Assembly (NCBI GenBank): GCA_964607755.1
Contig: CAZSMC010000006.1
Location: 19,955-83,954 of the forward strand
Reading direction: 5' to 3'
DNA from: an uncultured Cytophagia bacterium
GTDB taxonomy: Bacteria; Zhuqueibacterota; Zhuqueibacteria; Residuimicrobiales; Krinioviventaceae
DNA: 64,000 nucleotides
Positions within the stretch are counted from its first letter, which is position 1, and every line of letters begins with the position of its first letter. The translations under genes were made by a program, and so were the position numbers. The notes beneath the pieces were generated by a model. That model was not told the DNA's origin, did no database searches, and saw nothing but the letters and a program-made list of their open reading frames with translations. This document shows, piece by piece, positions 1 through 23,134 of this stretch.

Positions 1-1166
1 CAGAAACGGCACCCGCAATTCCAGACTAAACCGCATGCCCATGCGGTCAGCGCGCTGCAGATTGATGTTGTGCAAGTTATTGATGCAGCGTCTGGCTTCG
101 TTGTTCACGTCGGCGACATCCCAGTTTTTCATATATTGGTACCCGGCAAACACTTCGTCTGCGCCTTCACCGGTCAAAACCACAGTCACATGTTCGGCTG
201 CCAATTTACAGGTAAAATAGCAGGGCACAGCGCAGCGAACCAGCGAGGGATCGTAACTTTCCAGATAGCGAATGACCTGGGCCAGGGCTTTGTAATAATC
301 TTCTTCAGTAAACACCAGCTCGTGATGCGTTGACCCGATATGCTTTGCCGCAATGCGTGACGCTTTAAGATCATCACTTTCGTTGCCTTTGCCGTCTTTC
401 ATGCCCACGGCAAAAGTGTGCAGGTGCGGAATTCTCTGAGCAGCGATAGCAGCGACCAGGCTGCTGTCCAGTCCGCCGCTGCAAAACGCACCGACGTGGA
501 TTCCCGGGTCTGATAAAAGCCGCTTTTCAACAGCGTCAATAAACGTGTCCTGGATTGTATCGGCAGCCTCATCGATCGTCCACTCATTGTTTTCCTGAAT
601 GCGGGGCGGTTCGTAATATTTGACAAATCCGGTTTCCGGTGTATAATAATGACCGGCCGGGAATTCGTGCACCTGATCGACGCCAGCATGTGACATGGCG
701 CCAAGTTCGGATGAAAAATACAAATTGTCTTTGTAATAGCCGTAATAGAGGGGTTTGATGCCGATATGATCCCGTGCCAGGAAGAGCGTGTCGTTATCAA
801 AAATAGCAAAGGCGTACATGCCGTCCAGCTCTTTGATAAAATCATTGCCTTTTTCTTCATATAGTGGCAAAATAACTTCTGTATCGGATTCGGTCTGATA
901 CGGATAATCTGGTTTGACGTTATTTTTTAATTCCAGATAATTGTAAATCTCGCCGTTACAAATCAGACCGCGTTTTTCATTCTGGGTTAAAATCGGTTGA
1001 TGGCCGCCACTGACATCGACGATAGATAACCGGTTGTGGCCGAACGAACCGGCTGAATTGCTGTAAAGTCCTCTGTCATTGGGGCCCCGGTGTTCCATGG
1101 TATCCATCATTTTTAATATTGTTTTATCATCGGGTTGTCCATAGCACCCTGCGATACCACACATTA
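1..1166 (-). CDS. asnB: Asparagine synthase (glutamine-hydrolysing). The N-terminal ~388 aa are present; the 3' end runs off the window edge.
   Basis: Reverse-strand translation from the ATG at 1166 gives 'MCGIAGCYG...' (Ntn Cys2), '...HNRLSIVDVSGGHQP...' and the PP-loop 'FCSGGLDSS'. An AGGA is upstream. Missed by the ORF track because it runs off the edge. Confidence 0.8.
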
Positions 1167-1205
1167 TATAATCCTCATTTTATGATCAATAGTTTTTAGA
1201 TTTTT

Positions 1206-2681
1206 TTATGAAACGAGTATACGGTTTTTTATTTCATTCACTTCTTTAAAGTCAAGAGCGCCCTCAGCTCGCTGGCCTTGATAGAGCCAACCTTTACGCA
1301 ATCCGGAGCGCGCCGCTTTCATAAACTTTGTGCTGCTTCGTCCTGAGGTGACCGCTTTGCTAATCAGTTCAACCTGTGCATCAACAGTTTCTGAGGAATA
1401 CTCTTCCTGTCCGTTGAGGATGAACTCGATGCGGTTCGACAGATCATCCTGCAGCTCGTTGGTCACCGGCGCATTAAACATGCTCAGTGCATCAGTGACG
1501 GCTGTTTGCGCCACATCTGAGATATCATAATCCGGGGATTCGGTTAACAGTTTTTTGACGTGGCTGATGACTTTATCATCGATAATATATTGTTCCGGGC
1601 AGACTGTGAGCACCTGTTCGAGCATTCCCAAGGCGCTGTTGATATATTGCGCGCCGCTCGCCGCCTCAAAGACCCAGCTCAGCGTTTTCTCGGCCACAGT
1701 TTGCGCGTTGGGTTCTTTTTCATCTGATACGGCTGCTGTGCCGCAGCACGGAATGCCGTAATAATAGGTGAGATCCGTTACCATGGCCACCCGCCTGATG
1801 CTCTCTGGCTGACACCACCGCGGAGAGCCGTCAGAAAACAAATCAGAGGTAATAGGAATAGCCCGGTAAAAAACTTTGGCTCCGCTCTTGATGAGGTTGG
1901 CAAGCACAACAGCGGAGAGGATTTCGGCGTTCACTTGAATGAGCTCGCCGACCTCGGAAAGCGGGGCAGTTGCACCGGCCTGTGGACAACTGGAGATGGC
2001 AACCGGCAGTCCATGCTCGACCATTTTCATGTATTTTTCAATGGTTGGACTCACCAGATTCATGGGACTCACGGTTAGAGAAGCAATGAACGAAATCCGC
2101 GACGGGTCTTCAATAGCGGTGAGAATCTCGGGCAGTTTCTCAATTTTAACCAGATTAGCCAGGTTAATATGCTTTGTCGTATTCTCGATGAAAATACGGG
2201 TTTTTTCCATATCCATTTCATTTTCTGCAACATCCGGCTCGACCGGACGGGTGATAAAATCGACGTTGTCCAATTTTTCGCAAATCCGGATAATATCAAT
2301 GAGGTCCTGAGTGACAGCCGGTTTGCGTGTGAATGAACCGTCCTTAGTTTGGTGTAAGACATAAAGAGCTTGTCCGCCAGTGCCGAAATGCACTGCCGGG
2401 GAGTCCACATTTACATCTATAGTCAGTTTATTTTCCGGATCGCTCGCTCCAAGCTCGATCTTTTTGGCTGTTTGTTGAACCGCTTGTTCGACCATGGATT
2501 GAGGAACAGTCACCCGGCCATCCTTGACATCGGCACCGCCGTCTTTGAATAACCGAATGGCCTCGTCGCTTTCTACTTTGACACCTAATTCCGAGAGAAG
2601 CCGGCACGAGCCCGCGTGAATTAATGTGCACTCCTCCTCACTCAGAAACTGTGTTTTTTTTATGCGTGTACCTCTGGACAT
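1206..2681 (-). CDS. MttB-family (trimethylamine-type) methyltransferase, non-pyrrolysine; substrate:corrinoid methyltransferase paralogue 1
   Basis: 491 aa, the typical MttB-superfamily length and TIM-barrel-like composition. No in-frame TAG. Paralogous to 3477-5012 and 5889-7370. Sits next to a corrinoid protein. Confidence 0.75.
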   Translation of the reverse strand: MSRGTRIKKTQFLSEEECTLIHAGSCRLLSELGVKVESDEAIRLFKDGGADVKDGRVTVPQSMVEQAVQQTAKKIELGASDPENKLTIDVNVDSPAVHFGTGGQALYVLHQTKDGSFTRKPAVTQDLIDIIRICEKLDNVDFITRPVEPDVAENEMDMEKTRIFIENTTKHINLANLVKIEKLPEILTAIEDPSRISFIASLTVSPMNLVSPTIEKYMKMVEHGLPVAISSCPQAGATAPLSEVGELIQVNAEILSAVVLANLIKSGAKVFYRAIPITSDLFSDGSPRWCQPESIRRVAMVTDLTYYYGIPCCGTAAVSDEKEPNAQTVAEKTLSWVFEAASGAQYINSALGMLEQVLTVCPEQYIIDDKVISHVKKLLTESPDYDISDVAQTAVTDALSMFNAPVTNELQDDLSNRIEFILNGQEEYSSETVDAQVELISKAVTSGRSSTKFMKAARSGLRKGWLYQGQRAEGALDFKEVNEIKNRILVS

Positions 2682-2769
2682 ACGTTACCTTTATTTTGAT
2701 GCACTAAACTGTTAGCGTCTCTTTCCACGCTATCAACGTGTCAGAATATTTTTGGTAAAATATCCTTTT

Positions 2770-3447
2770 TTATCGGGCCATTTTTTCCAGTTTGTGAATA
2801 GCGTCAAATGCGTCCTCGCCATAAACATCTGCACCGATCTTTTTAGCAAACTCTTCAGACACCGGAGCACCGCCGACGCAGACTTTGACCTGATCCCGCA
2901 GGCCTTTTTCCTTCAGCAAGTTAATGACATCTTCCATGTGGCCCATCGTTGTGGTGAGCAGAGCGGACAGACCGAGATAAGACGCCTTTTTCTCTTCAAC
3001 AGCCTGGACGATTTTATCCGCTTTCACGCCAACGCCGAGGTCTTCAACCTCAAAGCCGGAGCCGCGCAAAAGAGTCGAGACGATATTTTTGCCAATGTCG
3101 TGAAGGTCATCTTCTACAGTGGCGATAATAAATTTACCTCGCGATTTGACATCACCTTCAAGAAGCATGGGTTCGAGAATTTCCGTCGCTTCGCTGACGC
3201 ATTCTGCGGCTGCCAGCATATCCGGAATCAGATAATCACCGTTCTCATATCGTTCTCCCACTTTTTCCATTCCGGGACTTACGGCTTTGTTCAGAATATC
3301 GGATGGCGAAATCCCTTCATCAAGAGCCTGCTGCACCAGTTCGACCACGCCGGGCTCGCCTTCCATATCGCCGTCAAATCCCTCATCTTCACTGTCAATG
3401 CGTCCTTCAATAACATTCTTTTTGATTTTTTCAAGAATATCTGACAT
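2770..3447 (-). CDS. Cobalamin-binding corrinoid protein (MtgC/MttC-like)
   Basis: 225 aa with the B12-binding signature 'DLHDIGKN' (DxHxxG), '...SALL...' (SxL) and 'VGGA' (GG). An N-terminal helical cap domain is present. Confidence 0.8.
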   Translation of the reverse strand: MSDILEKIKKNVIEGRIDSEDEGFDGDMEGEPGVVELVQQALDEGISPSDILNKAVSPGMEKVGERYENGDYLIPDMLAAAECVSEATEILEPMLLEGDVKSRGKFIIATVEDDLHDIGKNIVSTLLRGSGFEVEDLGVGVKADKIVQAVEEKKASYLGLSALLTTTMGHMEDVINLLKEKGLRDQVKVCVGGAPVSEEFAKKIGADVYGEDAFDAIHKLEKMAR

Positions 3448-3476
3448 TTTTGTTCTCCTTTATATTTATAAAGTGT

Positions 3477-5012
3477 TTATAATTCAAAACGTTCTTTTGG
3501 CAAGAGACCTGGAATTTTATCATATATCTTGTCAACAATAGCCTGATCGAGTTTTTCATCTTCACCGGCAAAGATCTCTTCCAGACGATGGTGAGCCTTG
3601 ATCAGCACTTCGTCCTTGTCACTCTCTGACTCGAAGGCATACGGCGCTGTAACCAGACCTTTCCTGCGAGCTTTGCGAATATACCGGGCAAACAATTTTG
3701 TGCTCGATGCCAGCGTGTGCTTGATTTGTTCAGCCGCATCCGCTACATCATTCTCGTTAAAAACCGGCTGCCGTAAGATATGCCGTATTTTTCCGACATG
3801 CGCGTCATCCAATACGGCTTGCAATGGACAAAAAACGTTGGTTTTATCGAGCAGACCGAATGCATAATGAATGTATTGAGCGCCGGCAGCGGCGACTTCA
3901 AGTTGAGCGAACACTTTTTCGATTGTTGCCTGCATGCCCGGCACTTTGGCATCGCCGACGCCTGCTGACGAATAACACGGTACGCCATAATGACGCGCCA
4001 TCTGGATGCAATCGGCGTTGTAATGAATAAATTCAGGGGCGCCGTAAAGGTCGTGCAGAGTATCCAGGCGGGCGCGCACGGGTACGGCTCCGTACAAAAC
4101 CGGCGTTCCCGGATTGACAATTTGTGCCATTGCTATACCTGCCAAAATTTCCGCATTGATGAGCGAGACAATGCCTTCTTCCTGGATCGGCGCTGTTGAT
4201 CCGCCCTGGGGCGAGCTCGAAATGACCACTGGCATGCCTCTCTGCGCAATAGCGATGAGTTTTTCCGTCGTATCTTCTACCATTTGCAGGGGACTCTTGA
4301 TGACACAAGTGATAAAAGAAACCAGTGGATTTTCTTTGAACGCCCGTTCTCCTCCGGCAATAATCTCTGCTATCTTTAGGATGTTATCGAGCTGACTCAG
4401 ATCAACCACACCGGCCTGAACGTGCTTTGTCATGTACATCAACGCTGCCATAAAGACATTGACATCCTTGTTTGCAAGCGTAATGTCCTCATCCTGAATG
4501 TTGACATTGCGGATGAAAAAGTCCACATTCTCCAGGCTGTTGCATAATTTAGCCGAGGTACACAGGTTTTTGAGCGAGCCACGTTCTTTGATAAATTCGG
4601 GATGCAGCATCGTTTCTGACGCATCATCTTTGCATACGTATTCCTTGAGTTCTGTTTTCAAAAAAATATTCGTTTCAGAACCGGTGCCAAAATACACGTT
4701 GGGCACTTGCGCATCCAAAAGTAATTTGTTGTCAGGATTTCTCGCACCCAGCACCACACGTTCCGGAATATTCGTTAATGTATCCTGAATAACCTGTGGC
4801 GTGATTTTTACATTCCAGGCATCCATTCCCTCATCAGCCCGGCTCACTTTGCATCCAGCCCTGCCGTATAAATCTGCGGCATGTTCGTTAAAACACGTCA
4901 CTCCCGGATCGTTGAGAATAGCCAACGAGCCTTCATGAATCGCTTTTATTTGTTCATCTGACATGCGCTTTTTCGGATTAACAAGCGTTGCGCGTCTGTA
5001 TTTTTTCTGCAT
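3477..5012 (-). CDS. MttB-family methyltransferase, non-pyrrolysine, paralogue 2
   Basis: 511 aa and uninterrupted. Similar to the other two MttB-like ORFs at the family level. Alternative start at 'MSDEQIKAIHEG'. Confidence 0.75.
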   Translation of the reverse strand: MQKKYRRATLVNPKKRMSDEQIKAIHEGSLAILNDPGVTCFNEHAADLYGRAGCKVSRADEGMDAWNVKITPQVIQDTLTNIPERVVLGARNPDNKLLLDAQVPNVYFGTGSETNIFLKTELKEYVCKDDASETMLHPEFIKERGSLKNLCTSAKLCNSLENVDFFIRNVNIQDEDITLANKDVNVFMAALMYMTKHVQAGVVDLSQLDNILKIAEIIAGGERAFKENPLVSFITCVIKSPLQMVEDTTEKLIAIAQRGMPVVISSSPQGGSTAPIQEEGIVSLINAEILAGIAMAQIVNPGTPVLYGAVPVRARLDTLHDLYGAPEFIHYNADCIQMARHYGVPCYSSAGVGDAKVPGMQATIEKVFAQLEVAAAGAQYIHYAFGLLDKTNVFCPLQAVLDDAHVGKIRHILRQPVFNENDVADAAEQIKHTLASSTKLFARYIRKARRKGLVTAPYAFESESDKDEVLIKAHHRLEEIFAGEDEKLDQAIVDKIYDKIPGLLPKERFEL

Positions 5013-5054
5013 AATAAATGTTCCCTGCTAAGCGGATTGTCTTGAAAGCACTTA

Positions 5055-5876
5055 TTATTTTGCTTGCTGACCGAACTCGCCTTTCCGGACAGCGCGCACA
5101 AAACGCCGGCAAAATTTATCATTACCAGCCACGAGATTGCCGAGCAAAATAGCTTCGCGCACTTCTCTTCGCATCGGGTCACAAATGGCGGAATCCAGTC
5201 CATGGGTAATCGCAGCTATGAGGAACGCCTCGTTCACGCGCGAGCGTTCAACAAGACCATAAGATACATTGGACAGCCCTATTGTTGTTTTGGCGCCAGG
5301 TAACGACTTTTTAATTCCTGCGATGGTGTTCAATGTTGTTTTACCATGGGTATGAGCTGACGACAGCGGCATCACCAGCGGATCGAAATAGATATTTTCC
5401 ACCGGCACGTTTGCCTTGTCAGCGGCTTCGGCAATGGATTTGCATACTTTGAGACGATCCTCGGTCGTTTCAGGAATTCCGCCGTCTCCCATGGCCAGGG
5501 CTATCAGCGGAACGTTATGCTCGGCTGCCAGAGGCAGCAATTCGTCCATTATATATTTTGCTTTTTTGATAGAATTGATCATCCAGGGCCGGCGATTATG
5601 CAGATATTCGGCTGCTTCTTTTATTATTTTGGGACTTGCCGAATCGATACCCAGCTTTTTCTCTGTCGTGTCCAGAGCAATGTCGATAAGCCATTTCATG
5701 TCATCGATTTCACGCTGTTCATCGCCGCTGCCGGTTCCGGCATTCAGATCAATATATGCAGCACCTGCCTCGTCCTGATCGGAAATTTGTTTTTTTATTA
5801 CAGATGCATCTTTGTCCAAAATCGCATTTTTGATAGATTTTCGGGAAGCGTTTATTTTTTCACCAATAATAATCAC
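5055..5876 (-). CDS. Methyl-tetrahydrofolate:corrinoid methyltransferase (pterin-binding, MtrH/AcsE/MtgA-like)
   Basis: 273 aa. 'IIGEKINAS' at the N-terminus and the 'DPL...', 'GLSN(V)SYG' pterin-binding barrel motifs typical of the MetH pterin domain / AcsE. Confidence 0.75.
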   Translation of the reverse strand: MIIIGEKINASRKSIKNAILDKDASVIKKQISDQDEAGAAYIDLNAGTGSGDEQREIDDMKWLIDIALDTTEKKLGIDSASPKIIKEAAEYLHNRRPWMINSIKKAKYIMDELLPLAAEHNVPLIALAMGDGGIPETTEDRLKVCKSIAEAADKANVPVENIYFDPLVMPLSSAHTHGKTTLNTIAGIKKSLPGAKTTIGLSNVSYGLVERSRVNEAFLIAAITHGLDSAICDPMRREVREAILLGNLVAGNDKFCRRFVRAVRKGEFGQQAK

Positions 5877-5888
5877 GCTTTTTCTCCT

Positions 5889-7370
5889 TTATTTGAGTGA
5901 ATAATGTTTTTCTACAATGTTGGGAAACTTTTCCAGGATTTTCCGGGCTTTTTCTTTTTCAATATAATGTGTTGGTTTTTCTGATAATATATCCGTGACC
6001 ATTTCGTGAGCAACGGCAGGCATTGCCTTTTTGCCGGCTTGTTCCCAGGCATCTCGTCTGTCTCTGTTCGTCAATTGGGTTGTCACATGTTCCCTGTACA
6101 TGTGTTTTCGGGTATGGCGTTGAGCGATAAAATTGCCGCCCGGTCCGGCTTCTTTAATAACATCAAAAGCCAGCGTTTTTGAATTCACCTGAATTCCTTT
6201 GACCGCGCGATCGATCAGCCCTAAAATCTCATTATCAATGACCAGCTTTTCTTTACTCACTGTTGTGGCGAATTCCATGAGACCGGCCGCATCGTGGATA
6301 AAATCTCCGCCTGCAGTAGCGACAAGTAAATTATTAATAGCTGTTTCATATCCGCATTGGGTATCCAGGGTTTTAGAATCACTTATGCCGGCGGTGGAAT
6401 AATAAGGAAAGCCGTAATATCGCGCCAGTTGCGCGGTTGCGGCATTGATCATACCGCTTTCTACGGGTCCACCTAAATAACCGATGTCTTGCATACTAAC
6501 GGACGTTGCCACACTGCCGTAAATGGCAGGAGCGCCCGGATTTGCCAGTTGTGTCAACATCATATTCACCAGGCCGTCGCAATTTTGGATAACAAGCGTG
6601 CCTGCCAGAGTCACTGGCGCCGTAGCACCGCAGAGCGGTTCTACAGGAACAGCCGTAGGGATGCCCTGACGCGCCAACTGAATAGTGAATGCACCGTACT
6701 TGCTGTCCAGGCGCAACGGGCTGATTCCGCAGGCAATCATCGAAATAAACGGACGCTCGCGCAACGCCTCAGCGCCACCGGCAATTTCTTCCGCAATGCT
6801 GATGACATCGTCAATACCTTTTGACGTGTAGATGCCACCCATAATGTGTTTTTTTGTATACATCAAGCCAGCAAAAAAACGATTCACATCCACATTATCC
6901 ACATTGATCTCGTTCGGATAAGTCGGCAGCAGCATAACATGCACATTTTTCAACTTGTCTACCAAGCGAATAACTTCGATAAGATCATTCAAATCGGCGG
7001 AGCGTTGTTGGCCATTGTTTTCATCATAGTCGAGAATATTGAGCGCCGTTCCACCAGTGCCGTAATACACATTACCAGCACCAAGGGTCGCGTTATATTT
7101 ATCTTCTCGCCCATACAACGTCACCTGAGGCGGAACCGTGGAAATAATATCTTTTATTGTCGATTCTTTCAGACGGACAATTCTATTGTCATAATCGATT
7201 TGAGCGTCGGTTTTTTCAAACAATTCAAATGCTTCTTGAGCCTGAACTTCAAAGCCCACTTCATTCAGCACTTGCATGGATGTTTGATGAATTTGTTCAA
7301 TCTCTTTATCGGTTAAAGGCAAATATTGCCATCGGGCAGGTTCATTCGATTTTCGTTGCATAACATTCAT
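5889..7370 (-). CDS. MttB-family methyltransferase, non-pyrrolysine, paralogue 3
   Basis: ORF track gives 5889-7469. I moved the start to the internal ATG ('MNVMQRKS...') at 7370 so it no longer overlaps the upstream gene by 89 nt. MttB-like core 'GTGGTALNILDYDEN...'. Confidence 0.7.
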   Translation of the reverse strand: MNVMQRKSNEPARWQYLPLTDKEIEQIHQTSMQVLNEVGFEVQAQEAFELFEKTDAQIDYDNRIVRLKESTIKDIISTVPPQVTLYGREDKYNATLGAGNVYYGTGGTALNILDYDENNGQQRSADLNDLIEVIRLVDKLKNVHVMLLPTYPNEINVDNVDVNRFFAGLMYTKKHIMGGIYTSKGIDDVISIAEEIAGGAEALRERPFISMIACGISPLRLDSKYGAFTIQLARQGIPTAVPVEPLCGATAPVTLAGTLVIQNCDGLVNMMLTQLANPGAPAIYGSVATSVSMQDIGYLGGPVESGMINAATAQLARYYGFPYYSTAGISDSKTLDTQCGYETAINNLLVATAGGDFIHDAAGLMEFATTVSKEKLVIDNEILGLIDRAVKGIQVNSKTLAFDVIKEAGPGGNFIAQRHTRKHMYREHVTTQLTNRDRRDAWEQAGKKAMPAVAHEMVTDILSEKPTHYIEKEKARKILEKFPNIVEKHYSLK

Positions 7371-7380
7371 CTCGCTTTTA

Positions 7381-8055
7381 TTATAACCGTCTGTATTCGC
7401 AATTTTCTTTTGTGCAGTACACGCAGGCATTGCCAGAGGCCTCTGCGGATTCTGCCGGACAAATACCAATCACACCAGAGAGTGATTTTCGTGGGGTCAT
7501 AGAATAGTTGGAATTCAATGTCACATCTAATTTTTCAAAAGGTAGGAGTTTGAGAATATCTTTCTGGCTTTTGATGGACCAATCACAATAACCAGGACTA
7601 TAGTGCCGGGTTATATCTTCGTCATCGTTTACTTTATCGCTGATCGTTTCGTAAAGATGAGTAACAGCAGATTCTGCAGCCAGAGACGCTGCGGTATCTA
7701 AAATATAACCGTAATCCGGGGATTCTTTTAAGGTCTTTTTAATGAGTTCATCAACTTTGGGACCCATGGTTATCAAGAAAACAACTGCTTTGTTACAATC
7801 CCGGAAAACTCGGGAAACTTTTTTACTGTCGAATGAAATATCATCACTTAATCGGACTGAATCTTCCTGATATTCACAGGGTACCACCCGGTAAACAGCC
7901 CGTGGAGAGGAGTGTTTGTAAATTTCTTTCAAGGCTTTTTTTGCCTGGCGACGAACTCGGGATGAAACCTTTGTTCGCCGCTTTCCCCCAAGCCTTTCAT
8001 AAAGAAATTTTATAGGGATGGAGAAAGGAATTGATTTTAACAATACCGTTTTCAT
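7381..8055 (-). CDS. Standalone vitamin-B12 methionine-synthase activation-domain-like protein (Met_synt_B12 family); candidate corrinoid reactivation factor
   Basis: 224 aa. 'RHYSPGYCDWS...NYSMTPRKSLSGVIGI' parallels E. coli MetH 'RPAPGYPACPE...SFAMWPGASVSGWYF'. Cys-rich C-terminal tail. Confidence 0.5.
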   Translation of the reverse strand: MKTVLLKSIPFSIPIKFLYERLGGKRRTKVSSRVRRQAKKALKEIYKHSSPRAVYRVVPCEYQEDSVRLSDDISFDSKKVSRVFRDCNKAVVFLITMGPKVDELIKKTLKESPDYGYILDTAASLAAESAVTHLYETISDKVNDDEDITRHYSPGYCDWSIKSQKDILKLLPFEKLDVTLNSNYSMTPRKSLSGVIGICPAESAEASGNACVYCTKENCEYRRL

Positions 8056-8732
8056 CGCAAAACCTCATTTTTTATGTCACATAGATTATTAATCATCATT
8101 GCTTAGAGTCTATGAATTACTCGTGAACGAACGTAACCGATACCATCACTGATACGTCAAATTATCATCCACGGTCTAGGACAGATCTATGATAGACTGT
8201 TTATCTGTGATTCAATCGACAAATATTGTCCCGAACTTCTTTACATGGTTAGAATAAGAAGGACAACAATCTGCTCTTTTCAGTCGGACTCTGCCGCCTT
8301 TTAAAAAGTTGTTCCCACAAAGATAATCGGGTTGGATAACTGCAGTTTTAAGCCTAAAACAAAGATTAACTTTTATAAAACAATACTTTGACAGTTACCA
8401 CAATGACACACTGGAAATCATTTTGAAAAGTTCAACGTGCAACCCGCAGGAACATGTCTTTTGCGTTTAGAATACTATAACCCCGTTACCGCAAAAAACT
8501 GTTGTAAAGAAAAATGGTTCAGTTGATTCAAAGAATAGTCTCATAATGGTATTTTTTTAATGAGCTTATTTTTTAAATGTTCTACCATAGTTATTACTTT
8601 GTAAAGGCGAAAAAATATAAGAATTTTAAATCATAAATCCAAATTTGAGAGCAGAATAATTGTCATATTAAAGAACAAGAAAAATCACGGCTTACTTTCC
8701 GTAATTTTTCTCAAGGGGCTTTTTTGAGGGAT

Positions 8733-8760
8733 AAAAAAAACCCCCGAAAAATGCGGGGGC
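8733..8760 (-). terminator. Rho-independent terminator of hsp20
   Basis: CCCCCG-aaaaatg-CGGGGG hairpin at 8741-8759. It is preceded on the plus strand by A8 at 8733-8740, which is a U8 tract after the hairpin on the minus-strand transcript. Confidence 0.65.
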
Positions 8761-8781
8761 CACGTCATGTTTTGGATTCAT

Positions 8782-9213
8782 TTATTGAATCTCAATCTCC
8801 CGAGATTTCGCTTCTTCAGATTTTGGCAGTGTCAGATGCAGCACACCATCTTTGTATTCTGCCTTGACTTTGCTTTCATCTACTTTGGTCGGTAATGTGA
8901 CAGAGCGCCGGAACGCACCATAAGTGCGTTCTTCATAATAACGGTTTTCGTCTTCTTTCTTGTCTTCATAATTGCGTTCGCCCTGCAGCGTTAACACATT
9001 GTTCTGCAATGACACATTGATATCTTCTTTCTTCATACCGGGAATATCAACATCGACAACGTAAGCATCTTTCTTTTCTTTGATATCCAGTCGAGGCGAC
9101 CATACGGTTGATTCTTCTTCCCAGTTTCTCCAAACATCATCGAAAAAACGATCGATCATTCTGGGAAATCTCGGATAATCAATGTCACCACGATTTCTTC
9201 TCATGATAGCCAT
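8782..9213 (-). CDS. Small heat-shock protein, Hsp20/alpha-crystallin family
   Basis: 143 aa. The alpha-crystallin domain 'PRLDIKEKKDAYVVDVDIPGMKKEDINVSL...GVLHLTLPK' is present. Confidence 0.9.
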   Translation of the reverse strand: MAIMRRNRGDIDYPRFPRMIDRFFDDVWRNWEEESTVWSPRLDIKEKKDAYVVDVDIPGMKKEDINVSLQNNVLTLQGERNYEDKKEDENRYYEERTYGAFRRSVTLPTKVDESKVKAEYKDGVLHLTLPKSEEAKSREIEIQ

Positions 9214-9929: not shown

Positions 9930-11534
9930 TTAAAAACGATAATCGACACCGATCATCAAGTTGTTCACATTCATCGTATAAATACCCGCGACATTCTCGG
10001 CAACCAGCATGTTATCGTAGCTCCAGGTCAATATTTCTTTATCATCGATAAAAATTCGTTCGTAATTCAAAGAAACCGCAAACGGCCCTACTGGCATGGA
10101 AAGACCGAGGTACACGTTATTGCGGCGCCCGATTTCAGGAATTGACGGCGATACTGTTTTATCTGTTGCCGCCCGGTTCTCTGTGGTAAATCCGCCGCGC
10201 AAGGTAAGCTGTCCAGCCTTGTATTCCGCACCAACACCTAATTTGAAGGTGTTGTCCCAATTCTGAGCCAACTGGGAAATTGTTTCGCCAGTTGTATCTT
10301 TTATTTTGATGACATCCCAGGCTGACCATTGGGTGTAATTAACATCTACAGCCAAAAGCACATTTGAGAGGCCGGAATAGCTAATGCCAAGTCCGACTTT
10401 CATGGGCAGGGGGACAGTGACCGTCGCTTCGGTATCGACAATATTGACAACATCACCGGAATAAAAATCCGAGACAATTAAATATTGCTGAGAATCGATT
10501 TGTCCAGCTTTGAGCAGCTTGTCAATAATTTCATAAGTGTTTTCTGCCAATTTCTGATATTCCGGCGCATCAGCAAAATAGGTTGTTTGTCTGTAATCGC
10601 CGGATGGCTTGAAATCTGTGAAATATTGAAAGGTAGCGCCGATGCTTAAATCATCAATCGGTTTGTACATGATTCCAGCGTTTGCGCCGAAACTGGTGCC
10701 CTCGCTCTGCATTTCAACCTCGTTAATGAGATGATCAAATGGTGGTTTGCGCATTTGTTCTAATGTGGCTAATTGGCTTTCTTCTAATTTGTATTGCAGG
10801 TATTGATACAACGTTTCGTTGTACAAGTAAGGATTTTGCAAAAAAGCAGGTTGACGCAGACCAAGCTTACCTAGCAAAATACTGGCACCGACACCAACTG
10901 AAAGCCGGTCGCTCAGCTTTCGGGAAATTGTCGGATGAATGTCGACAATCTGAATATCGCTCTCATATTCAAATTTCGGATAGGCGGCATTATACCCTTT
11001 ATAATCATCAAAAGGAACTGGCCGGCCCTGGGGCTGGTTTATCGCTGTTTCGAGCACATCCCATTTTGCACCCCATGCCATGGGCACCCAAAGTCCAATG
11101 CCAAACGCCCACTTGCCAGTGCTGTAAGACACGCCAGCAGCCGGCACTACAAAATCAATGGGCTCTCCGGATCGTTCTGTCTGAAAAGCCACACTAAAGC
11201 GTTTAAATGCACTGTCGTTATGTTCCTTATAGTAATGACTGTCACCTGCCTTGAACGTTCCTCTGGGCATGACGTATTCTATGCCCAATCCTGCTCTCCA
11301 GCCATCAGTAAAAGCCAGACCGGCGGGATTCCAATACATGGCGCTCCAATCATCGGCAATAGAACGATAACTGCCCCCCATCGCAGTTGCGCGCGTACCG
11401 ACATTGGTTAATTCAATCCCTGCGGCAAAAAGCGAAGTGATTGTCATAAGCATTAGATAGAGTGCGGTTCGCAGAAGTATGGATTTGGTCATTGTTCCTC
11501 CGGAGTCCAGTTGTGTATTCCTTTTGTAGTTCAT
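9930..11534 (-). CDS. Outer-membrane beta-barrel protein, FadL/OmpP1/TodX family (a PorV-like candidate)
   Basis: 534 aa with a signal peptide. Mature N-terminus 'AAGIELTNVGTRATAMGGSYRSIADDWSAMYWNPAGLAF' aligns with E. coli FadL '[37 protein letters not shown]'. C-terminal '...VDYRF' ends in an aromatic residue. Confidence 0.7.
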   Translation of the reverse strand: MNYKRNTQLDSGGTMTKSILLRTALYLMLMTITSLFAAGIELTNVGTRATAMGGSYRSIADDWSAMYWNPAGLAFTDGWRAGLGIEYVMPRGTFKAGDSHYYKEHNDSAFKRFSVAFQTERSGEPIDFVVPAAGVSYSTGKWAFGIGLWVPMAWGAKWDVLETAINQPQGRPVPFDDYKGYNAAYPKFEYESDIQIVDIHPTISRKLSDRLSVGVGASILLGKLGLRQPAFLQNPYLYNETLYQYLQYKLEESQLATLEQMRKPPFDHLINEVEMQSEGTSFGANAGIMYKPIDDLSIGATFQYFTDFKPSGDYRQTTYFADAPEYQKLAENTYEIIDKLLKAGQIDSQQYLIVSDFYSGDVVNIVDTEATVTVPLPMKVGLGISYSGLSNVLLAVDVNYTQWSAWDVIKIKDTTGETISQLAQNWDNTFKLGVGAEYKAGQLTLRGGFTTENRAATDKTVSPSIPEIGRRNNVYLGLSMPVGPFAVSLNYERIFIDDKEILTWSYDNMLVAENVAGIYTMNVNNLMIGVDYRF

Positions 11535-14095
11535 TTTATCAATATTAATTTACCGGTGTCTGAAAAGGTCCGTTCTTCGGCAATAGCGCTGGCCTGCATA
11601 TTATAAAAATAGACACCGGACGTCAAATCGCTGGCATCAACCGGCACATCGTGGACACCAGCCGTGAATAATTGATCGTAAAGTTGCTTTTCAAGCTGAC
11701 CTAAAATATTGTAAAGCGAGATCGATACACGGTTCGCCTGAGGCAATTGAAAACGAATGGTTGTTGATGAATTAAATGGATTCGGATAGGCGCCAAATAA
11801 TTTATAGTTTTTTAGCTCTTGAGGCTTTTCCCGGATTGCTGTTTCATCTATTAATTTTAAAGAGACATTATCGACATACACATCGGCATTATTATCGCCA
11901 ACGTTAATCACCACCCGTCCATTGGGATCGGACGGGTCTTCCATGTTAAATTCATAAGAGTAATGCCTTTTTGCCGGGCCTACCCCTGACAAGCCAATCT
12001 TGCTGTAATTGATCCACGGACTCTCATCCTGGCCGACTTTGGCTTCAATGGTTCGAGGCGATACAGCCCAGGCATCAAATTCAAAAAGATACTTTTCGCC
12101 CTGAACCAGAGGCATCTGGTTTTGCCGCAATTGCACCGCATAAACCGCATTACCGCCGTTGCTGATCTTAAAATGCGTTACACCGTCTTCAACGACCCAA
12201 TCGGCTTCGCCACCTTGCAGCTCATAAATCCATGCGGCTTTGTTTCTGGAAAAATCACCATTGGGCACAAGATTAACATTAGCAGCAACGTTCTGCACGA
12301 TAACCCGTTCTTCATTGGAATAGTCGCTTTCCGATCCATCCGGATACACTGCCGTTACACGCATATTATAAACCGTATTGTTTTCGAGATTGGTCATCGT
12401 TTTAATTGTTTTTTTCGACGTGTCTAACAGAGCCGTCGAGTGCCGGGTTGGTCCACCGTAAATATTGTAATATTCAACATCCGGATCGCCAAATTTGTTG
12501 AATATCAGTTTCACCTGCTCAAGTCCCTGCTCGACATAAAGACTCGGTTTTTCCACATTACCATTCCATGGACAGCGAAAGGTGCGGTAACATTCGTCCG
12601 GAGAAGCCCAGTTCATTTCGTACACCACCTCGCCATTTGGCGTGACTTCTGTTGCCTTGGGGCGGCTTGTCACAGCCCAGTTGATCAGCGAGTTTCCGTT
12701 TGGCAGGCGCTGATGGTTTCCCATATAATGAGAATATTCTGTACCTGGCGGATTTCGGTATTCCCACATTAGGGTAGCTGTCATATTTTCCACATCAAGT
12801 TTATATTCCACACCGCGCGAGACTTTGGGATTGCGGGAGGTACCGTTATCAAATACTGAATAATGATTGTCTCCCAATGCCAGGGCAGAATGCTGATTCT
12901 TAAATCCGTTCAGATCGTCGTTGACAAACTCGAATTGATTTTCCGGTCCGCCCAAACGCCAGATAAACTCTCCGGTGTGCCGGTTTATTTTTGACACTTC
13001 ACTCAAATGCCGGCTGGATAAAATGATGTGACCGTCATCGTCGATATCGATGGAATTCATGTGCGGAAAGCGGATATTATCGCCTTGCAGGTTTTCCAGT
13101 TCCAAAAATTGAATCACATCTTCGAAATGATCCCATGCCCGCCACTCAAAAATTTTATCGTGTTCGGCTGTAAATTCCTGGATACAGCATTCGCGGACCG
13201 TGGCATTTTTTCTGCCACCGCTCACATAAGCGCTCATATCTACATTCTCGTTGCGACGTCCGATGAGCAGGACATTGGCATTTTCCAGGATAATACATTC
13301 GTGTTCATCGGTGCTGTATCCATCAACGGCGCGGTATTCTGCTAAAAAATTGAAATCCTGATCAAAATTCAAAAACCGGTGGCCGCCGTGGCGTGCCAGC
13401 ATGGTGATGGTGCCGTTTCGCTGAACTTTGAAATCACGGCGGCGGTCCGTGGTTCTCAGGTACCAGACCGGCGAGCCATCGTTATCGAAAATGATGTTGT
13501 ATGGCGTGCCGCGTCCGCGATTGTTCAGGAAAATATAACCTTCGCCTGGCGCCTTGTTGACGCTGACATCGATGTGCGGAAAATCGCTTGGCACAGATAC
13601 ACCGTTAGGCATGATCCGAGCCTGACCGGCAGTCGGTTTGTTCAATTCTCTCGAACTTTGTGATAAAGTGTTATCGTTAATTTCTTCATTCGCAGTCAAA
13701 TCATCAAGCGGTTCAATAGGAGTAATATGAAAAACAAAAGAATGTTTTTCGATTCGCTCGATCGATGGTTTTGCGAAAACAGGTTCCAGCGTAACACTGA
13801 CTGTTGCGCCATGTTCAAACAGCTCATCCGGTTCAAAAATCACAGTCCGGTTGTCTGAGGCAATTCGGGTCGTTCCGGAAATGATCCTATGGTCATCCCG
13901 AACACGAATAAATTTTTGCATATTCTCGAGTAATTGCGGCGATGCTTCATCGAATCTTACGATAATCGTCGTTTGCGGCGTTACCCGGGTTGCATTGTCT
14001 TTTGGATAGACGTACTGATATCCCGGTACACTCGAAGCAACGGCTATACTCATCATTGAAAACAGTAGTATTGAAAAAAGACAGAAACGTTTCAT
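11531..14095 (-). CDS. Arylsulfate sulfotransferase (ASST)-family beta-propeller protein with Ig-like N-terminus, FN3 domain, CBM4/9-like domain and T9SS C-terminal sorting domain (paralogue A)
   Basis: 854 aa. ASST signatures 'FPHMNSIDIDDDGHIILSSRHLSEVSKI', 'SVFDNGTSRN', 'VSRGVEYKLD...TATLMWEY' match E. coli AssT 'WAHVNSIAYDAKDDSIILSSRHQGVVKI', 'TIFDNGDGRH', 'YSRFVEYKIDEKKGTVQQVWEY'. CBM-like 'NGDFS..W....GG' region. C-terminus 'YPNPFNSSTTIRFQLP...SLYNILGQ'. Confidence 0.8.
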   Translation of the reverse strand: MKRFCLFSILLFSMMSIAVASSVPGYQYVYPKDNATRVTPQTTIIVRFDEASPQLLENMQKFIRVRDDHRIISGTTRIASDNRTVIFEPDELFEHGATVSVTLEPVFAKPSIERIEKHSFVFHITPIEPLDDLTANEEINDNTLSQSSRELNKPTAGQARIMPNGVSVPSDFPHIDVSVNKAPGEGYIFLNNRGRGTPYNIIFDNDGSPVWYLRTTDRRRDFKVQRNGTITMLARHGGHRFLNFDQDFNFLAEYRAVDGYSTDEHECIILENANVLLIGRRNENVDMSAYVSGGRKNATVRECCIQEFTAEHDKIFEWRAWDHFEDVIQFLELENLQGDNIRFPHMNSIDIDDDGHIILSSRHLSEVSKINRHTGEFIWRLGGPENQFEFVNDDLNGFKNQHSALALGDNHYSVFDNGTSRNPKVSRGVEYKLDVENMTATLMWEYRNPPGTEYSHYMGNHQRLPNGNSLINWAVTSRPKATEVTPNGEVVYEMNWASPDECYRTFRCPWNGNVEKPSLYVEQGLEQVKLIFNKFGDPDVEYYNIYGGPTRHSTALLDTSKKTIKTMTNLENNTVYNMRVTAVYPDGSESDYSNEERVIVQNVAANVNLVPNGDFSRNKAAWIYELQGGEADWVVEDGVTHFKISNGGNAVYAVQLRQNQMPLVQGEKYLFEFDAWAVSPRTIEAKVGQDESPWINYSKIGLSGVGPAKRHYSYEFNMEDPSDPNGRVVINVGDNNADVYVDNVSLKLIDETAIREKPQELKNYKLFGAYPNPFNSSTTIRFQLPQANRVSISLYNILGQLEKQLYDQLFTAGVHDVPVDASDLTSGVYFYNMQASAIAEERTFSDTGKLILIK

Positions 14096-14147
14096 AAATT
14101 TTTTCCCTTGTCAGTTGTGCACATGATTTGTCGAAATGTCATTCAGC

Positions 14148-17100
14148 TCATTTTACAAATATCATTTTTTTAACGGCTTGATAGCGATTTTTGCTCTTTG
14201 CACTTTTGGCTTGCATCTCGTAAAAATAAATGCCTGTGCTCTTATCAGAAGCGTCAAAATCGATGCTGTGCTGACCAGTCTGATGTGTGCGATTCACAAG
14301 CTCAGCAATTTCTTCGCCACGAATATTATAAACACGTAATTTTACATTTGCGGCTTCCGGCACAAAATAAGAGATCGTTGTGCTCGTATTAAACGGATTG
14401 GGATAAGCAGGATACAACTCAAAAGTATCCGGCACCCGGGTTTCACCGCCCTCCAGTACGCTGGTATCATTAACGATTTGAAAATTATCAAAATGCGCTT
14501 CGCACAGAGCGTTGTCGTTGTGCGCTGTGACTGCCAGTCCGATGTACACCGTTTCATTCATATCGATCTGTTCCGAATCCACATAATTCCAGGATTCGCC
14601 GTCAGCGGATTCGTAACCGGTAAAAATATTCCCCCGGCGCACCAGTTTTATCCAGTAAGGCATTTTGAGATCGCCCTTGTTGGTATTGTGTGAACTTGCA
14701 TTTTTCTCTATACGTCTTTGGAACGCCATGCCGTTATTTACAGTCGCGCACATCATGGCGTGCTTTGCTGCCGCATGAAGCGAATTTCGAATCATCACCC
14801 CGGCTTTGGCCCATTCGTGCGTGTCGCTCATGGACAGCACACGTGCCGAAAGTTCGACGTTGCCTTCCACTCGCTGATAGGCATAATGAAACTCATCTCT
14901 GTTGCCCCAGATATCATCGCCCGAGCCTTTGACCACGTACCGGTCCTGCCAGATACCGGCATCACCCTCGATGCTCGTTTGTCCGATATCACGGTGCATC
15001 CAGGGGGAAGACAATTCGCGAAGAGGCAGGTCATCATCAATATTTTTCAGCGAAACATTGTCGATATAAACGTCTTCGGAAGCGCCGCCGCAATTGAACA
15101 CAATGCGCGCTTTATAATCAGAAGGATTCTCCATGAGAAACTCATAGGAAAAATGCCGTTTCGTTCTTCCCAGTGGTGTGGGATTGATTTTGCCATAGTT
15201 TTCATACGGACTCTCTGCCCGTTCAATTTTAGCATCGATGGCCCGGTTGCTTTCCGAGTAGGCATCGAATTCAAACACATATTTTTCACCTCGGACTATG
15301 GGAATATTTTCCTGTTTCAACTGCACGTTCCGGAAATCATCTCCGCCGTTATTAATATTGATGTGACAAAAGCCTTCGCTGGTCACATCAACTTGAGCCT
15401 CGGCATTCGTGACGGCAAAATCCCATTTATTTGTACTGTTCGAAAAATTACCGTTCCGGACCATATTGTCACCAGGCGAAACCAGATTCACATAAATGTC
15501 TTCTTCGTTAGAAAAATCGCTTTCGACACCCTGATCGTCTACAGCAGTAACGCGAAAATAATAGCGCTGGTCATTTGGCAGACCGGTGATTTTTGCCAGC
15601 GTTGCCTTGGACGTATCCACCACGGTTGTCGGATTGGGTGCGTTATCGCCGTAAATGTTATAATACTCGACGTTCGAATCGCCAAATTTATTAAAAACCA
15701 ACGTCACGTTATCACTGCCCTGTTCAACAAACAACAGCGGTTTCTCGACAACACCATCCCAGGGAAAGCGAAACGTGCGATAAGTATGATAACCATCGAC
15801 AAAATTCATCTCATAAACAACATTTCCATCCGGGGTAACTTCCATGGCCTTGGGTGAGTTCGATTTTACCCAGTTAATCAAGGTATTTCCATTTGGAAGC
15901 CGTTGAGCATTTCCCATATAATGCGTGTAATAATTTCTATTATCTGATCCACGACATTCCCACACCAGAGTTGCCGTCATTTTTTCAGTATCGAGTACAT
16001 ATTCAACTGCGCGGGATTGTTTCGGGTTGTGTAAATTACCATTGTCAAAAACTGTATAATGATTATCGCCGAGCACTCGAATATCATGTTGCATGTTAAA
16101 ACCATTGAGCTCATCATTAACAAATTCAAACTCATTATTTGCCCCGCCAAGCCGCCAGATAATCTGGCCAGTCTGCCGATGAATCTTTGTCACCTCGCTC
16201 AAATGACGGCTGGACAACAAAATATGTCCGTCCTCATCAATATCGATGGCATTCATATGCGGAAATCGAAATGAATTGGCTCTGGGGTCTGCTTCATTTG
16301 GCTCACAATAACCAATAATATCAGCAGGGTCAAAGTTATCCCAGGCTCGCCACTGAAATATTTTTTCGTGGTCAGGGGTAAATTCCTGGATGCAGCATTC
16401 TCGAACATTGGCGTTTGTCTTGCCGCCCGCCACATATTGACTCATATCAACAGTATCATTACGCCGGCCGATCAAAAGATAATGACCGTTTTCCAGCAAC
16501 TGCATGCCGTGTTCATCAGTGCCGTATCCATCCACAGCTTTAAATTCATCGATTTGGTTAAAATTTATATCATAATTCACAAAACGGTGTCCGCCATCTC
16601 GGGCGAGCATGGTGATGGTACCGTTTTTCTGCACCTTAAAATCACGGCGGCGGTCTCCGTCCTTGAAACGATGGTACCACACCGGCGAGCCGTCGTTATC
16701 AAAAATAATGTTATAGGGACCTTCATTGCGCCAGTTATTAATAAAAATATATCCATCGCCGGGATTCTTGTTGACAAAGACATCAATGTGCGGGAAATCG
16801 CTGGGAACCGAGACGCCGTTCGGCATGATCATCGCCCGACCCACAGCATCCGGTTTTGACAACGACGGCTGGACTTTTTCATCACGCTCGTCCGGCATGA
16901 CAAAATCCGGCAAAGGTTCATTGTTGGGAGTCACTTTAAATTCGAACGATGTCGGTTGAATCGTCTTGTTCAAAGTCCCAGTCACCTGGGGTGAGATAGT
17001 AACTGTCACCCGTTCCCCCGGTACATACTTTTGCTGGGGAGTAAAAATGATGGTTTCATCATCGGAAGCAATTTTTGTATTGCCAGTCAGGTTGCCGCTC

Positions 17101-17318: not shown

Positions 17319-17366
17319 TTTGATTTATCCTCGTTGATTATAAATTAAAATTAACAGAAATGAAAC

Positions 17367-19913: not shown

Positions 19914-19937
19914 AGGTCATCCTTGTAGAGAATGATA

Positions 19938-20726
19938 TTACAATTCTTCTAATAGCTTTTTTGCTTGATGTTTTATCATCGTGTCCGCGGCAAGTCCATG
20001 TGCAACGTCTTCTGTCTCTACAATTTCTTTCAAAAGTCGTTTGGACCGCTCCTGCTGATCCTGTTCCGCCAGAGCTTGAGCAAGATATAATTTATTGAAA
20101 AGATTGTCCGGTGCCATTTTGTAAGCGCGTTCGAGATAGCTCAATGCCTTTTTCTTCGAAGGCCAGGTCAGCACCAAAGGAATTTTAGGTACTTTGCGGT
20201 GAAGCAAACCCAGCATGCGGTAACCCCCGGCATCGAGATAGTCGGCATCGAGTTCGATTGTCTTTTCAGCATGATATTTTACTTTGCCAGCCACTCCCTG
20301 GCGCGCAGAAGTTAAAAGTCCCTGCACTTCTCCCAGGTATCCCCATAAAATCCCCAACCAGCAATGCAGCTCAACCCCCTTTGGATACTCATCAACGACC
20401 TTTTCTCCAAAATCGATAGCGCGGTGGTAAAGTCGCTGTCTGTATTCTTTATCATCAGTGGTAAATGTGGCTTTAAAATAAAAGGCTCGAAGCAGCTTCC
20501 AAACAGCCTCGTATTTTTGCTCACCAGAATTTTCATTGACAGCTTGCCGATACCAGTGAATCGCCTTATTTATGGTTGAAGAATCGGCAAGAATTTTTTC
20601 TTTATTAAAATTTTTGTTCCGTTGTTCAAAAAGGCTGTCTGCACGGGAGAGTGGAGTAGCGGCGGCAAGAGGAAAAGCTAAGAACAACACACAAACAATA
20701 ATACATCGAAATACATTATTTTTCAT
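19938..20726 (-). CDS. Hypothetical secreted alpha-helical (TPR-like) protein
   Basis: 262 aa. Signal peptide 'MKNNVFRCIIVCVLFLAFPLAAA'. Repeated amphipathic helices with W/Y/L spacing typical of TPR-like folds. Confidence 0.45.
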   Translation of the reverse strand: MKNNVFRCIIVCVLFLAFPLAAATPLSRADSLFEQRNKNFNKEKILADSSTINKAIHWYRQAVNENSGEQKYEAVWKLLRAFYFKATFTTDDKEYRQRLYHRAIDFGEKVVDEYPKGVELHCWLGILWGYLGEVQGLLTSARQGVAGKVKYHAEKTIELDADYLDAGGYRMLGLLHRKVPKIPLVLTWPSKKKALSYLERAYKMAPDNLFNKLYLAQALAEQDQQERSKRLLKEIVETEDVAHGLAADTMIKHQAKKLLEEL

Positions 20727-23100: not shown

Positions 23101-23134
23101 CGCGTTCATCTCATTCTTTTCAATTCATGTGGTC

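Follow-up and report, generated by a model that had tools for sequence, protein, structure and literature searches.

We describe an operon within a 64,000-nucleotide (nt) stretch of DNA from an uncultured bacterium (contig CAZSMC010000006.1; the whole stretch is referred to here as the window) that encodes three MttB-family methyltransferases together with a single corrinoid protein, a single methyltransferase predicted to act on tetrahydrofolate (THF), and an activation-domain protein of the MetH type. The same three MttB-family clades recur in the same order in loci from several phyla, and all three lack the residues with which a characterized relative binds glycine betaine. On balance, and with moderate confidence, we take the operon to be a conserved, horizontally shared cassette that passes methyl groups through a corrinoid to THF, its three corrinoid-methylating enzymes (MT1s) acting on linked or successive substrates other than glycine betaine.

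Anatomy and conservation of the cassette

The six co-directional open reading frames (ORFs) lie on the minus strand from 8055 to 1206, where a preliminary description of the window had placed them. In order of transcription, they encode a standalone MetH-type activation-domain protein (7381 to 8055, minus strand as are all that follow; 224 amino acids, or aa; PF02965 at 36.6 bits, with a cutoff of 25); MttB-3 (5889 to 7370; 493 aa); a pterin-binding, AcsE/MtgA-like methyl-corrinoid:THF methyltransferase, or MT2 (5055 to 5876; 273 aa, with a GTG start; PF00809 and NF005719); MttB-2 (3477 to 5012; 511 aa); a corrinoid protein with cap and B12-binding domains (2770 to 3447; 225 aa; PF02607 and PF02310); and MttB-1 (1206 to 2681; 491 aa). 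MttB-3, MttB-2, and MttB-1 are the window members of clades a, b, and c, of which b and c are deep branching and c is also cysteine rich. Their matches to PF06253 (cutoff, 25 bits) score 316 bits (E value, 3e-94), 191 bits (2e-56), and 185 bits (1e-54), respectively, placing all three inside the MttB superfamily as had been claimed; for MttB-1, the predicted fold says the same. Pfam and NCBIfam matches likewise bore out the gene content first proposed, namely, three MttB-family enzymes that do not depend on pyrrolysine (Pyl), one corrinoid protein, one methyl-THF transferase, and a MetH-type activation domain. The label “MtrH/AcsE-like” given to the transferase was right as to the AcsE/MtgA type, since NF005719 matches at 275.5 bits (curated cutoff, 259) over residues 1 to 271, but the protein is not a member of Pfam MtrH. 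The corrinoid protein, the only one in the operon, exceeds the cutoffs of both of its Pfam domains, contains the sequence DLHDIG (a DxHxxG His-ligand motif), and scores 206.4 bits against TIGR02370, slightly below the cutoff of 215.3. For MttB-3, the mechanically called ORF begins at 7469 and overlaps the upstream gene, and the ATG at 7370 agrees with the orthologues. All six genes end in TAA and contain no internal stops. The intergenic gaps are, in operon order, 10, 12, 42, 29, and 88 nt, so that four fall within the range of 10 to 45 nt given previously and the last exceeds it; a search for terminators within the operon found no convincing one. Foreign origin was rejected on grounds of composition, as the GC content of positions 1 to 8000 (45 to 49%) is the same as that of the rest of the window.

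Two Logan contigs of this organism and one contig of an 88%-identical relative (L020; handles of this form denote contigs used for comparison) carry the operon as well. Related loci, reached through MttB-3 orthologues at 61 to 74% identity, come from metagenomes and metagenome-assembled genomes (MAGs) labeled Eubacteriales, Spirochaetia, Verrucomicrobiota, and Aminicenantes and from the named assemblies of Dethiobacter alkaliphilus AHT1 (L014), Phosphitispora sp. TUW77 (L017), and Marispirochaeta sp. (L018). All-versus-all BLAST and tblastn comparisons resolved three orthologous groups, corresponding to clades a, b, and c. Orthologues are 51 to 74% identical across phyla, whereas paralogues within a genome are only 27 to 30% identical; the window proteins of clades a, b, and c share 61, 51, and 51% identity with their Dethiobacter counterparts, and the MT2 orthologues, which occupy the same position in the cassette, are 53 to 60% identical. 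Neighbor-joining (NJ) bootstrap values (100 replicates) were 100, 97, and 100 for the three clades. The solved or characterized references in this tree were MtgB, Pyl-dependent MttB, and 4YYC. Within those bounds, the placement against known enzymes that the preliminary description had called for put the three proteins within the superfamily, with clade a nearest to the references and on the MtgB/Pyl-MttB side (32 to 34% identity) and with clades b and c together forming a deep branch, 19 to 26% identical to solved members. Clade a is 32% identical to MtgB and 34% identical to Methanosarcina barkeri MttB, and MttB-3 itself scores nearly the same against MtgB (240 bits) and Pyl-MttB (238 bits); MttB-2 is ~25 to 26% identical to both and ~20% identical to 4YYC.

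The order of the cassette is activation protein, clade a, MT2, clade b, corrinoid protein, and clade c, with a MarR gene ahead of the activation protein and MetV-MetF between clade b and the corrinoid protein as optional members. The window, L020, L005, and L018 (Marispirochaeta) show this order as such, and L006, L016, L003, and L019 show it with MetVF inserted, the MT2 gene of L003 being placed after MetVF. The Dethiobacter and Phosphitispora loci have no adjacent activation gene, and the latter also has no adjacent MT2 gene. Clades a and b were both found in 13 of 13 distinct loci, clade c in 10 of the 12 loci that extend far enough (one further locus is cut off earlier), and the activation protein was adjacent to the cassette in 11 of 13. 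In the broader set, where hits were paired by the length of their contigs, one of the top 120 clade-b matches shares a contig with clade a in at least 25 of the 58 clade-a contigs that reach 10 kb, and at least 20 of 39 clade-c contigs carry a clade-a or clade-b match. The distribution of clades a and b is wide and takes in Aminicenantes, Planctomycetota, Spirochaetota, and Firmicutes among other anaerobes. Some 85 protein clusters at 45% identity or above make up clade c, a discrete set beyond which identity falls sharply to 34%. These comparisons show the trio to be no ad hoc collection: its members belong to three ancient orthologous clades that form a fixed set. That these clades recur in one order across phyla speaks for a linked pathway or for substrates that are related to one another. 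The host is an anaerobic degrader of glycans and sulfated glycans that bears a type IX secretion system (T9SS), a genomic context that had been recognized correctly. The view that such an operon is unexpected in a genome of the Fibrobacteres-Chlorobi-Bacteroidetes type was not upheld: with orthologues known from Chitinivibrionales, Aminicenantes, Planctomycetota, Eisenbacteria, Spirochaetota, and Firmicutes, the operon is no anomaly in such a host.

Substrate pockets, reactivation, and the partners of clade c

Pocket columns were mapped with L-INS-i, first on 22 sequences and then on 350, and pairwise HMMER alignments agreed. The reference positions come from two structures. In MtgB, structure and mutagenesis showed that Y97 and F356 form a cation-pi pair and that R312 and H348 bind the carboxylate (PMC13080624); Arg312, conserved in MtgB, MtcB, MtpB, MtyB, and MthB, forms a pair with the substrate's acidic group (PMC13080624). 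From the MttB structure come G110-T111, M249, Pyl334, and Y364 (PMC9842639). At the MtgB positions Y97/R312/H348/F356, clade a has G/Y/D/A, clade b has S/Y/Y/T, and clade c has G/C/S/V; at the MttB positions G110-T111/M249/Pyl334/Y364, the corresponding residues are GT/E/I/H, SE/S/V/H, and GQ/C/V/N. The MtgB glycine-betaine tetrad is thus absent from all three clades in the 350-sequence alignment, as is Arg312, which is replaced by Tyr in clades a and b and by Cys in clade c; the pockets of clades a and b appear to carry Glu, Asp, Tyr, and His instead. These signatures are invariant or nearly so in 120 (a), 118 (b), and 78 (c) sequences. In clade a (GT/E/Y/I/H-D), most positions are invariant and every position is at least 95% conserved; in clade b, E/Y/H-Y/T is invariant, the Met249 position holds a Ser with 99% conservation, and either Ser or Ala occupies the first position. 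The Tyr364 column, that of the proton shuttle, is occupied by His in clades a and b and by Asn in clade c. Since the tetrad and Arg312 are missing, assigning the trio to glycine betaine, proline betaine, carnitine, or butyrobetaine is unjustified, and since the residue common to all characterized non-Pyl members is gone, the chemistry of these clades is likely to be different. The pockets point to substrates that are not glycine betaine and whose binding differs from that of the known carboxylate- or phosphate-bearing quaternary amines.

Pyrrolysine was considered separately. Rfam reports a match to PYLIS_3, the mttB pyrrolysine insertion sequence, inside MttB-3 (6287 to 6386, minus strand; 38.3 bits, with a gathering threshold of 38). 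The UAG of the model lies opposite an AUA (Ile) codon, and the model consists mostly of sequence; we therefore read the match as coding-sequence homology and ruled out recoding in MttB-3. In protein alignments to the structure-derived sequence of M. barkeri MttB, the Pyl334 position is Ile in MttB-3 and Val in both MttB-2 and MttB-1, and the scores against TIGR02369, the equivalog model for Pyl-dependent MttB, are 425, 237, and 214 bits, respectively, all below the cutoff of 525. No in-frame UAG had been overlooked, as the preliminary description maintained, and the three proteins are non-Pyl members. The 64-kb window contains no tRNA genes of any kind. As a side observation, PYLIS_3 evidently detects coding homology in non-Pyl mttB genes and may mislead automated annotation.

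The activation protein matches TM0269 of Thermotoga maritima (PDB 1J6R; E value, 1e-9). The sequence YSPGYCDW and the C-terminal motif CxxCxxxxCx(Y/H)RR are kept in seven of seven aligned orthologues and in the Marispirochaeta protein; the S-adenosylmethionine (SAM)-site motif reads RYSPGY in five of the seven and R-HYSPGY, with the Arg shifted by one position, in the window protein. The CxxCxxxxC motif lies beyond the end of the TM0269 alignment, in the region of about residues 150 to 224, and could be a metal or Fe-S site for electron input. The protein is presumed to be a SAM-dependent reductive reactivator of the Co(II) corrinoid protein. Characterized MttB-family systems are reactivated by ATP-dependent RamA or RamQ (PMC12155760, PMC12478193); we found no RamA gene, either in the operon as called or up to 10 kb to each side in 13 related loci.

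The cysteines of clade c are strictly kept. Among 78 homologues, C232, C312, and C313 of MttB-1 are 100% conserved and C290 is 97% conserved. By alignment, C232 falls in the Met249 column and C312-C313 in the Arg312 column, both of them pocket positions; C290 is counted as lying elsewhere in the protein. Fold was tested for MttB-1 alone, as the most divergent paralogue. Its AlphaFold 2 model (predicted local distance difference test [pLDDT], 94; predicted template modeling [pTM] score, 0.93) gave Foldseek TM scores of 0.70 to 0.73 to 7XCL, 9YCE, and 4YYC (MttB, MtgB, and 4YYC) and placed C312 and C313 inside a beta-strand. A profile search of the PDB with 43 clade-c sequences returned MttB-family chains only and no homocysteine-binding domain, and on this basis a remote kinship of clade c with homocysteine-binding or other zinc methyltransferase domains was rejected.

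Clade c is regularly accompanied by a gene resembling asparagine synthase. In the window, the 5′ part of a bona fide asparagine synthase B gene (AsnB; 1 to 1164, minus strand) begins 41 nt downstream of MttB-1 and runs off the end; we located it by tblastn against the window, and the full gene is present on a longer contig (L001; NF006949, 604 bits). Just outside the window, this true AsnB is followed by an AsnB-like gene (488 aa; L001, 14717 to 16183; NF006949, 296 bits) with orthologues of 482 to 488 aa in L003, L006, L014, L016, L017, L019, and L020. Such a gene follows clade c, directly or beyond one or two genes, in 9 of 10 distinct clade-c loci (that of L018 is called as three fragments). 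In the AsnB-like proteins, the nucleophile Cys1 is replaced by Ser and other glutaminase residues are altered, and the PP-loop and the synthetase motifs GEGADExFxGY and RxPFLD are intact. Because the glutaminase residues are lost and the synthetase motifs kept, the protein is predicted to be an adenylating, amide-forming enzyme unable to use glutamine. A true AsnB or a CN-hydrolase accompanies it in some loci.

Two cassettes encode two corrinoid proteins each (L003, 11977 to 12681 and 15123 to 15797; L019, 5319 to 5987 and 7530 to 8216), one after clade b and one before clade c, 62 to 65% identical to each other. We rejected a deep specialization of the paired proteins, as this value is about the identity seen between genomes and the window corrinoid protein is equally close to both. 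The second corrinoid protein before clade c suggests that the corrinoid protein, clade c, and the AsnB-like gene can behave as a separate module.

Other neighbors bear on the fate and source of the methyl groups. The MetVF genes embedded in L003, L006, L016, and L019 encode a methylene-THF reductase (MTHFR), which is adjacent to the cassette in L008 and L018. OpuAC-type ABC transporters adjoin the cassette in three lineages (L008/L009, L011/L012, and L019), mechanosensitive-channel genes lie nearby in L013 and L017, and CN-hydrolase genes do so in two lineages. These neighbors suggest a catabolic route in which methyl groups of osmolyte-like quaternary compounds are delivered to THF and then oxidized.

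Proposed mechanism, competing explanations, and significance

In the mechanism that we propose, clades a, b, and c would each transfer a methyl group to the single MtgC/MttC-like corrinoid protein in its Co(I) form, and the AcsE/MtgA-like MT2 would hand that group to THF; in several relatives, the cassette-encoded MetVF methylene-THF reductase would then oxidize it. The TM0269-like activation protein would rescue oxidized Co(II) corrinoid by SAM-dependent reductive methylation, in the stead of RamA. On grounds of homology, the general scheme (from MT1 to Co(I) corrinoid to MT2 to THF, with repair by reductive methylation) is well founded. We infer that the substrates of the three MT1s are chemically linked and are not three unrelated betaines: a fixed trio that has clade-specific invariant pockets and moves as a unit argues against a casual multi-substrate collection and favors linked chemistry. 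The most economical case, and the one that we favor, is successive demethylation of one osmolyte-type methylammonium compound that lacks the usual acidic handle. Clade c would be an optional last or side step involving substrate modification, with the AsnB-like amide synthetase, devoid of its nucleophilic Cys, probably modifying the substrate or product of clade c. For modification of the substrate of an MttB member by an ATP-dependent enzyme, there is the example of MthK, which phosphorylates choline for MthB (PMC12155760), and in strain DCMF several MT1s sharing one MT2 have been proposed to carry out stepwise demethylation of betaine (PMC9768040).

Several points weigh against this interpretation. 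The window operon contains no transporter gene. Clade c is evidently dispensable, being replaced in L008/L009 and L011/L012 by a 424-aa protein plus an OpuA-type ABC transporter, and in two loci it has a corrinoid protein to itself, as would suit a separable module. The pocket residues were mapped by sequence alignment at 20 to 34% identity, at which three alignment methods nevertheless agree, and loss of Arg312 does not prove that a carboxylate is unbindable in another way. Co-inheritance could simply reflect the mobility of a convenient multi-substrate operon. To our knowledge, Pyl-free demethylation of tertiary or secondary amines has no characterized precedent in the MttB family, and a literature search returned nothing on this cassette. 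With regard to the 424-aa genes (L008, 6718 to 7992; L011, 5891 to 7165), which occupy the clade-c position in the closest metagenomic relatives without that clade, we observed that they have no Pfam or NCBIfam match and contain a class-I SAM-methyltransferase motif (IIDLGCGSGDG); an OpuA-type betaine ABC transporter comes next.

The preliminary description had proposed a multi-substrate hub, in which three quaternary-amine demethylases, independent and each specific for its substrate, draw on a single corrinoid protein and a single THF methyltransferase to gather methyl groups from several osmolytes. Part of this stands, in that three divergent enzymes do share an operon with one corrinoid/THF module, and their pockets are clearly different. 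Moreover, the neighboring OpuAC-type transporters bind many quaternary amines, Eubacterium limosum has many MttB paralogues with distinct substrates (PMC8604678, PMC12155760), and a shared corrinoid/MT2 core with several partners is known in Ruegeria (PMC12478193). However, free assembly predicts a composition that varies between genomes, and what is seen instead is a fixed trio in a fixed order; the Arg312 of every characterized acidic quaternary-amine enzyme (PMC13080624) is missing from all three, and characterized systems usually give each MT1 its own corrinoid protein. We regard a hub of this kind as possible but doubtful. Reading clades a and b as one heteromeric enzyme, with one subunit catalytic and the other serving as a scaffold or specificity subunit, would mean fewer substrates than genes. 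The two are nearly always adjacent, with only the MT2 gene between them; in the MttB-MttC structure, it is the dimerization loop of the partner subunit that grips the corrinoid protein, MttB-family proteins being obligate dimers (PMC9842639); and in clades b and c the match to PF06253 covers no more than the first ~415 of its 500 profile positions, which implies divergent C-terminal dimerization regions. Both a and b, however, keep invariant and distinct pocket residues, suggesting that both are catalytic, and we consider such a heteromer improbable.

The cysteines of clade c invite yet another explanation, in which it is a metal (zinc)-dependent thiol or thioether methyltransferase on the acceptor side, making the operon a bidirectional hub akin to a split MetH that delivers methyl groups to THF or to a thiol, or else a demethylase of methylated sulfur compounds. 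The zinc ligands of homocysteine-binding TIM barrels are C247/C310/C311 in MetH and C217/C299/C300 in BHMT, and the spacing of the clade-c cysteines, one Cys followed ~80 aa later by Cys-Cys, recalls this arrangement; the invariant C232 sits just above the cobalt, C312-C313 take the place of Arg312, and C290 is nearly as well conserved. The rest of the operon resembles a disassembled MetH (pterin, cap/B12, and activation modules), clade c has its own corrinoid protein in two loci, and the Ruegeria system couples MttB-type demethylation to methionine synthesis. We nonetheless give this explanation only a small chance: the 43-sequence profile matched MttB-family structures alone, the two side chains of C312 and C313, within a beta-strand of the model, may not both reach one metal, and the AsnB-like partner is left without an obvious role. 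Very improbable, in our estimation, is a Pyl-independent bacterial route of complete N-demethylation, from the trimethyl through the dimethyl and monomethyl compounds to the free amine, of a substrate without an acidic group such as choline or even trimethylamine. In such a route, clades a and b would remove the first methyl groups; for the last and hardest step, the substrate would be pre-activated by the Cys-less AsnB-like synthetase, which would use ATP to ligate the remaining secondary or primary methylamine to a carboxylate, and the cysteine- or metal-containing clade c would demethylate the resulting N-methyl amide. If true, this would be a functional alternative to the pyrrolysine enzymes MttB, MtbB, and MtmB.

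Thousands of non-Pyl MttB homologues are annotated as “trimethylamine methyltransferase” or assumed to be betaine demethylases, and only six substrates are known; the cassette defines three large, widespread, and testable enzyme clades for which such annotations are probably wrong. It is also probably a widespread and unrecognized route by which osmolyte-derived methyl groups enter the one-carbon metabolism of anoxic sediments, where it would compete with methylotrophic methanogens. With cultured hosts available (Dethiobacter alkaliphilus AHT1, Phosphitispora sp. TUW77, and Marispirochaeta), the question is directly testable. For corrinoid enzyme mechanism, the leads are a MetH-type reactivator with an added Cys motif and a cysteine-rich clade c paired with an AsnB-like synthetase. 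Clusters of multiple MT1s sharing one MT2 are already known from strain DCMF, and uncharacterized MttB-like groups are often mentioned in MAG papers; our literature search found nothing linking MttB with an asparagine-synthase-like gene or with a MetH activation domain.

Flanking sequence and relation to known systems

Upstream of the operon lies an AT-rich intergenic region of 726 nt, presumably the promoter/leader region (8056 to 8781), the place occupied by a MarR gene in most related loci. Compared with the same region of L020 in an alignment that includes ~15 to 20 nt of flanking coding sequence at each end, it has 87% mean column identity and long, perfectly conserved blocks. It may be a promoter, a leader RNA, or a small gene. 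An Rfam scan of the region found no match even at E values up to 1, and the fold z-score was −0.67; with two sequences available for comparison, a riboswitch or structured leader was rejected on these grounds. A decayed MarR gene was also rejected, as tblastn gave no signal. At 8739 to 8761, there is a strong intrinsic terminator belonging to the upstream Hsp20 gene. This small heat-shock gene (8782 to 9213, minus strand) and a Toluene_X/FadL-type outer-membrane channel gene (9930 to 11534, minus strand) are syntenic in L020. Farther upstream (11531 to 30879, minus strand) are genes for five large paralogous secreted proteins of 848 to 1056 aa, each with a Big_5 or Ig-like domain, an arylsulfotransferase (ASST)-type beta-propeller, and a T9SS C-terminal sorting domain, and four of the five with CBM4_9; they constitute an unusual expansion of extracellular ASST-like proteins. 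A sulfotransferase gene (23135 to 24220) and a KAS III-like gene are interspersed among them, and a sulfatase gene (31232 to 32596), GH3, and GH127 follow.

Of the systems that have been characterized, MtgB-MtgC-MtgA (Desulfitobacterium hafniense, Acetobacterium woodii, and Methanolobus vulcani) resembles the cassette in having a non-Pyl MT1, a corrinoid protein with cap and B12-binding domains, and a pterin-binding MT2, and the predicted model of MttB-1 shares the TIM-barrel fold of MtgB. The cassette differs in lacking the tetrad, in having three MT1s per corrinoid protein, and in carrying a MetH-type activation protein where the MtgB system has RamA. The methanogen enzymes MttB, MtbB, and MtmB, for tri-, di-, and monomethylamine, are a precedent for three dedicated enzymes acting in successive demethylations, and clade a shares with MttB the G110-T111 loop and a Tyr at position 329. 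The methanogen trio, however, consists of three unrelated families with their own corrinoid proteins and coenzyme M as the acceptor, whereas the cassette has one family, one corrinoid protein, and THF; in addition, the cassette enzymes have no UAG or pyrrolysine, a replaced Tyr364, and TIGR02369 scores below the cutoff.

The best precedent for the pairing of clade c with an AsnB-like gene is the MthB-MthC-MthA-MthK choline pathway of E. limosum, in which the gene for an MttB-family MT1 likewise stands beside that for an ATP-dependent, substrate-modifying enzyme (PMC12155760). The helper there is a kinase and not an adenylating amide synthetase, and MthB keeps Arg312 (PMC13080624), whereas clade c does not. 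In the MtgBCDE/split MetH hub of Ruegeria pomeroyi and Phaeobacter inhibens, as in the cassette, one corrinoid protein and one pterin-binding methyltransferase serve several methyltransferases (PMC12478193). Those organisms are aerobes in which RamA and DUF1638 carry out reactivation; they also have a canonical homocysteine-binding subunit and MtgB-type MttB proteins that contain the Arg. The cassette has no homocysteine-binding domain. TM0269 has the same domain as the activation protein, a similar length, and an (R)xxxGY SAM-site region, but it reads PGYGDL where the cassette protein reads PGYCDW, with its extra Cys; the cassette protein also carries the conserved CxxCxxxxC near its C terminus, past the point where the TM0269 alignment stops, and is encoded with MttB-type enzymes rather than with methionine synthase. 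Finally, ‘Candidatus Formimonas warabiya’ DCMF also combines several MttB-family MT1s and corrinoid proteins with a single MT2, for which the authors proposed glycine betaine and then dimethylglycine as substrates (PMC9768040). Its enzymes are MtgB-like, are accompanied by BCCT transporters, and belong to one lineage, whereas the cassette comprises other clades and is conserved across phyla.

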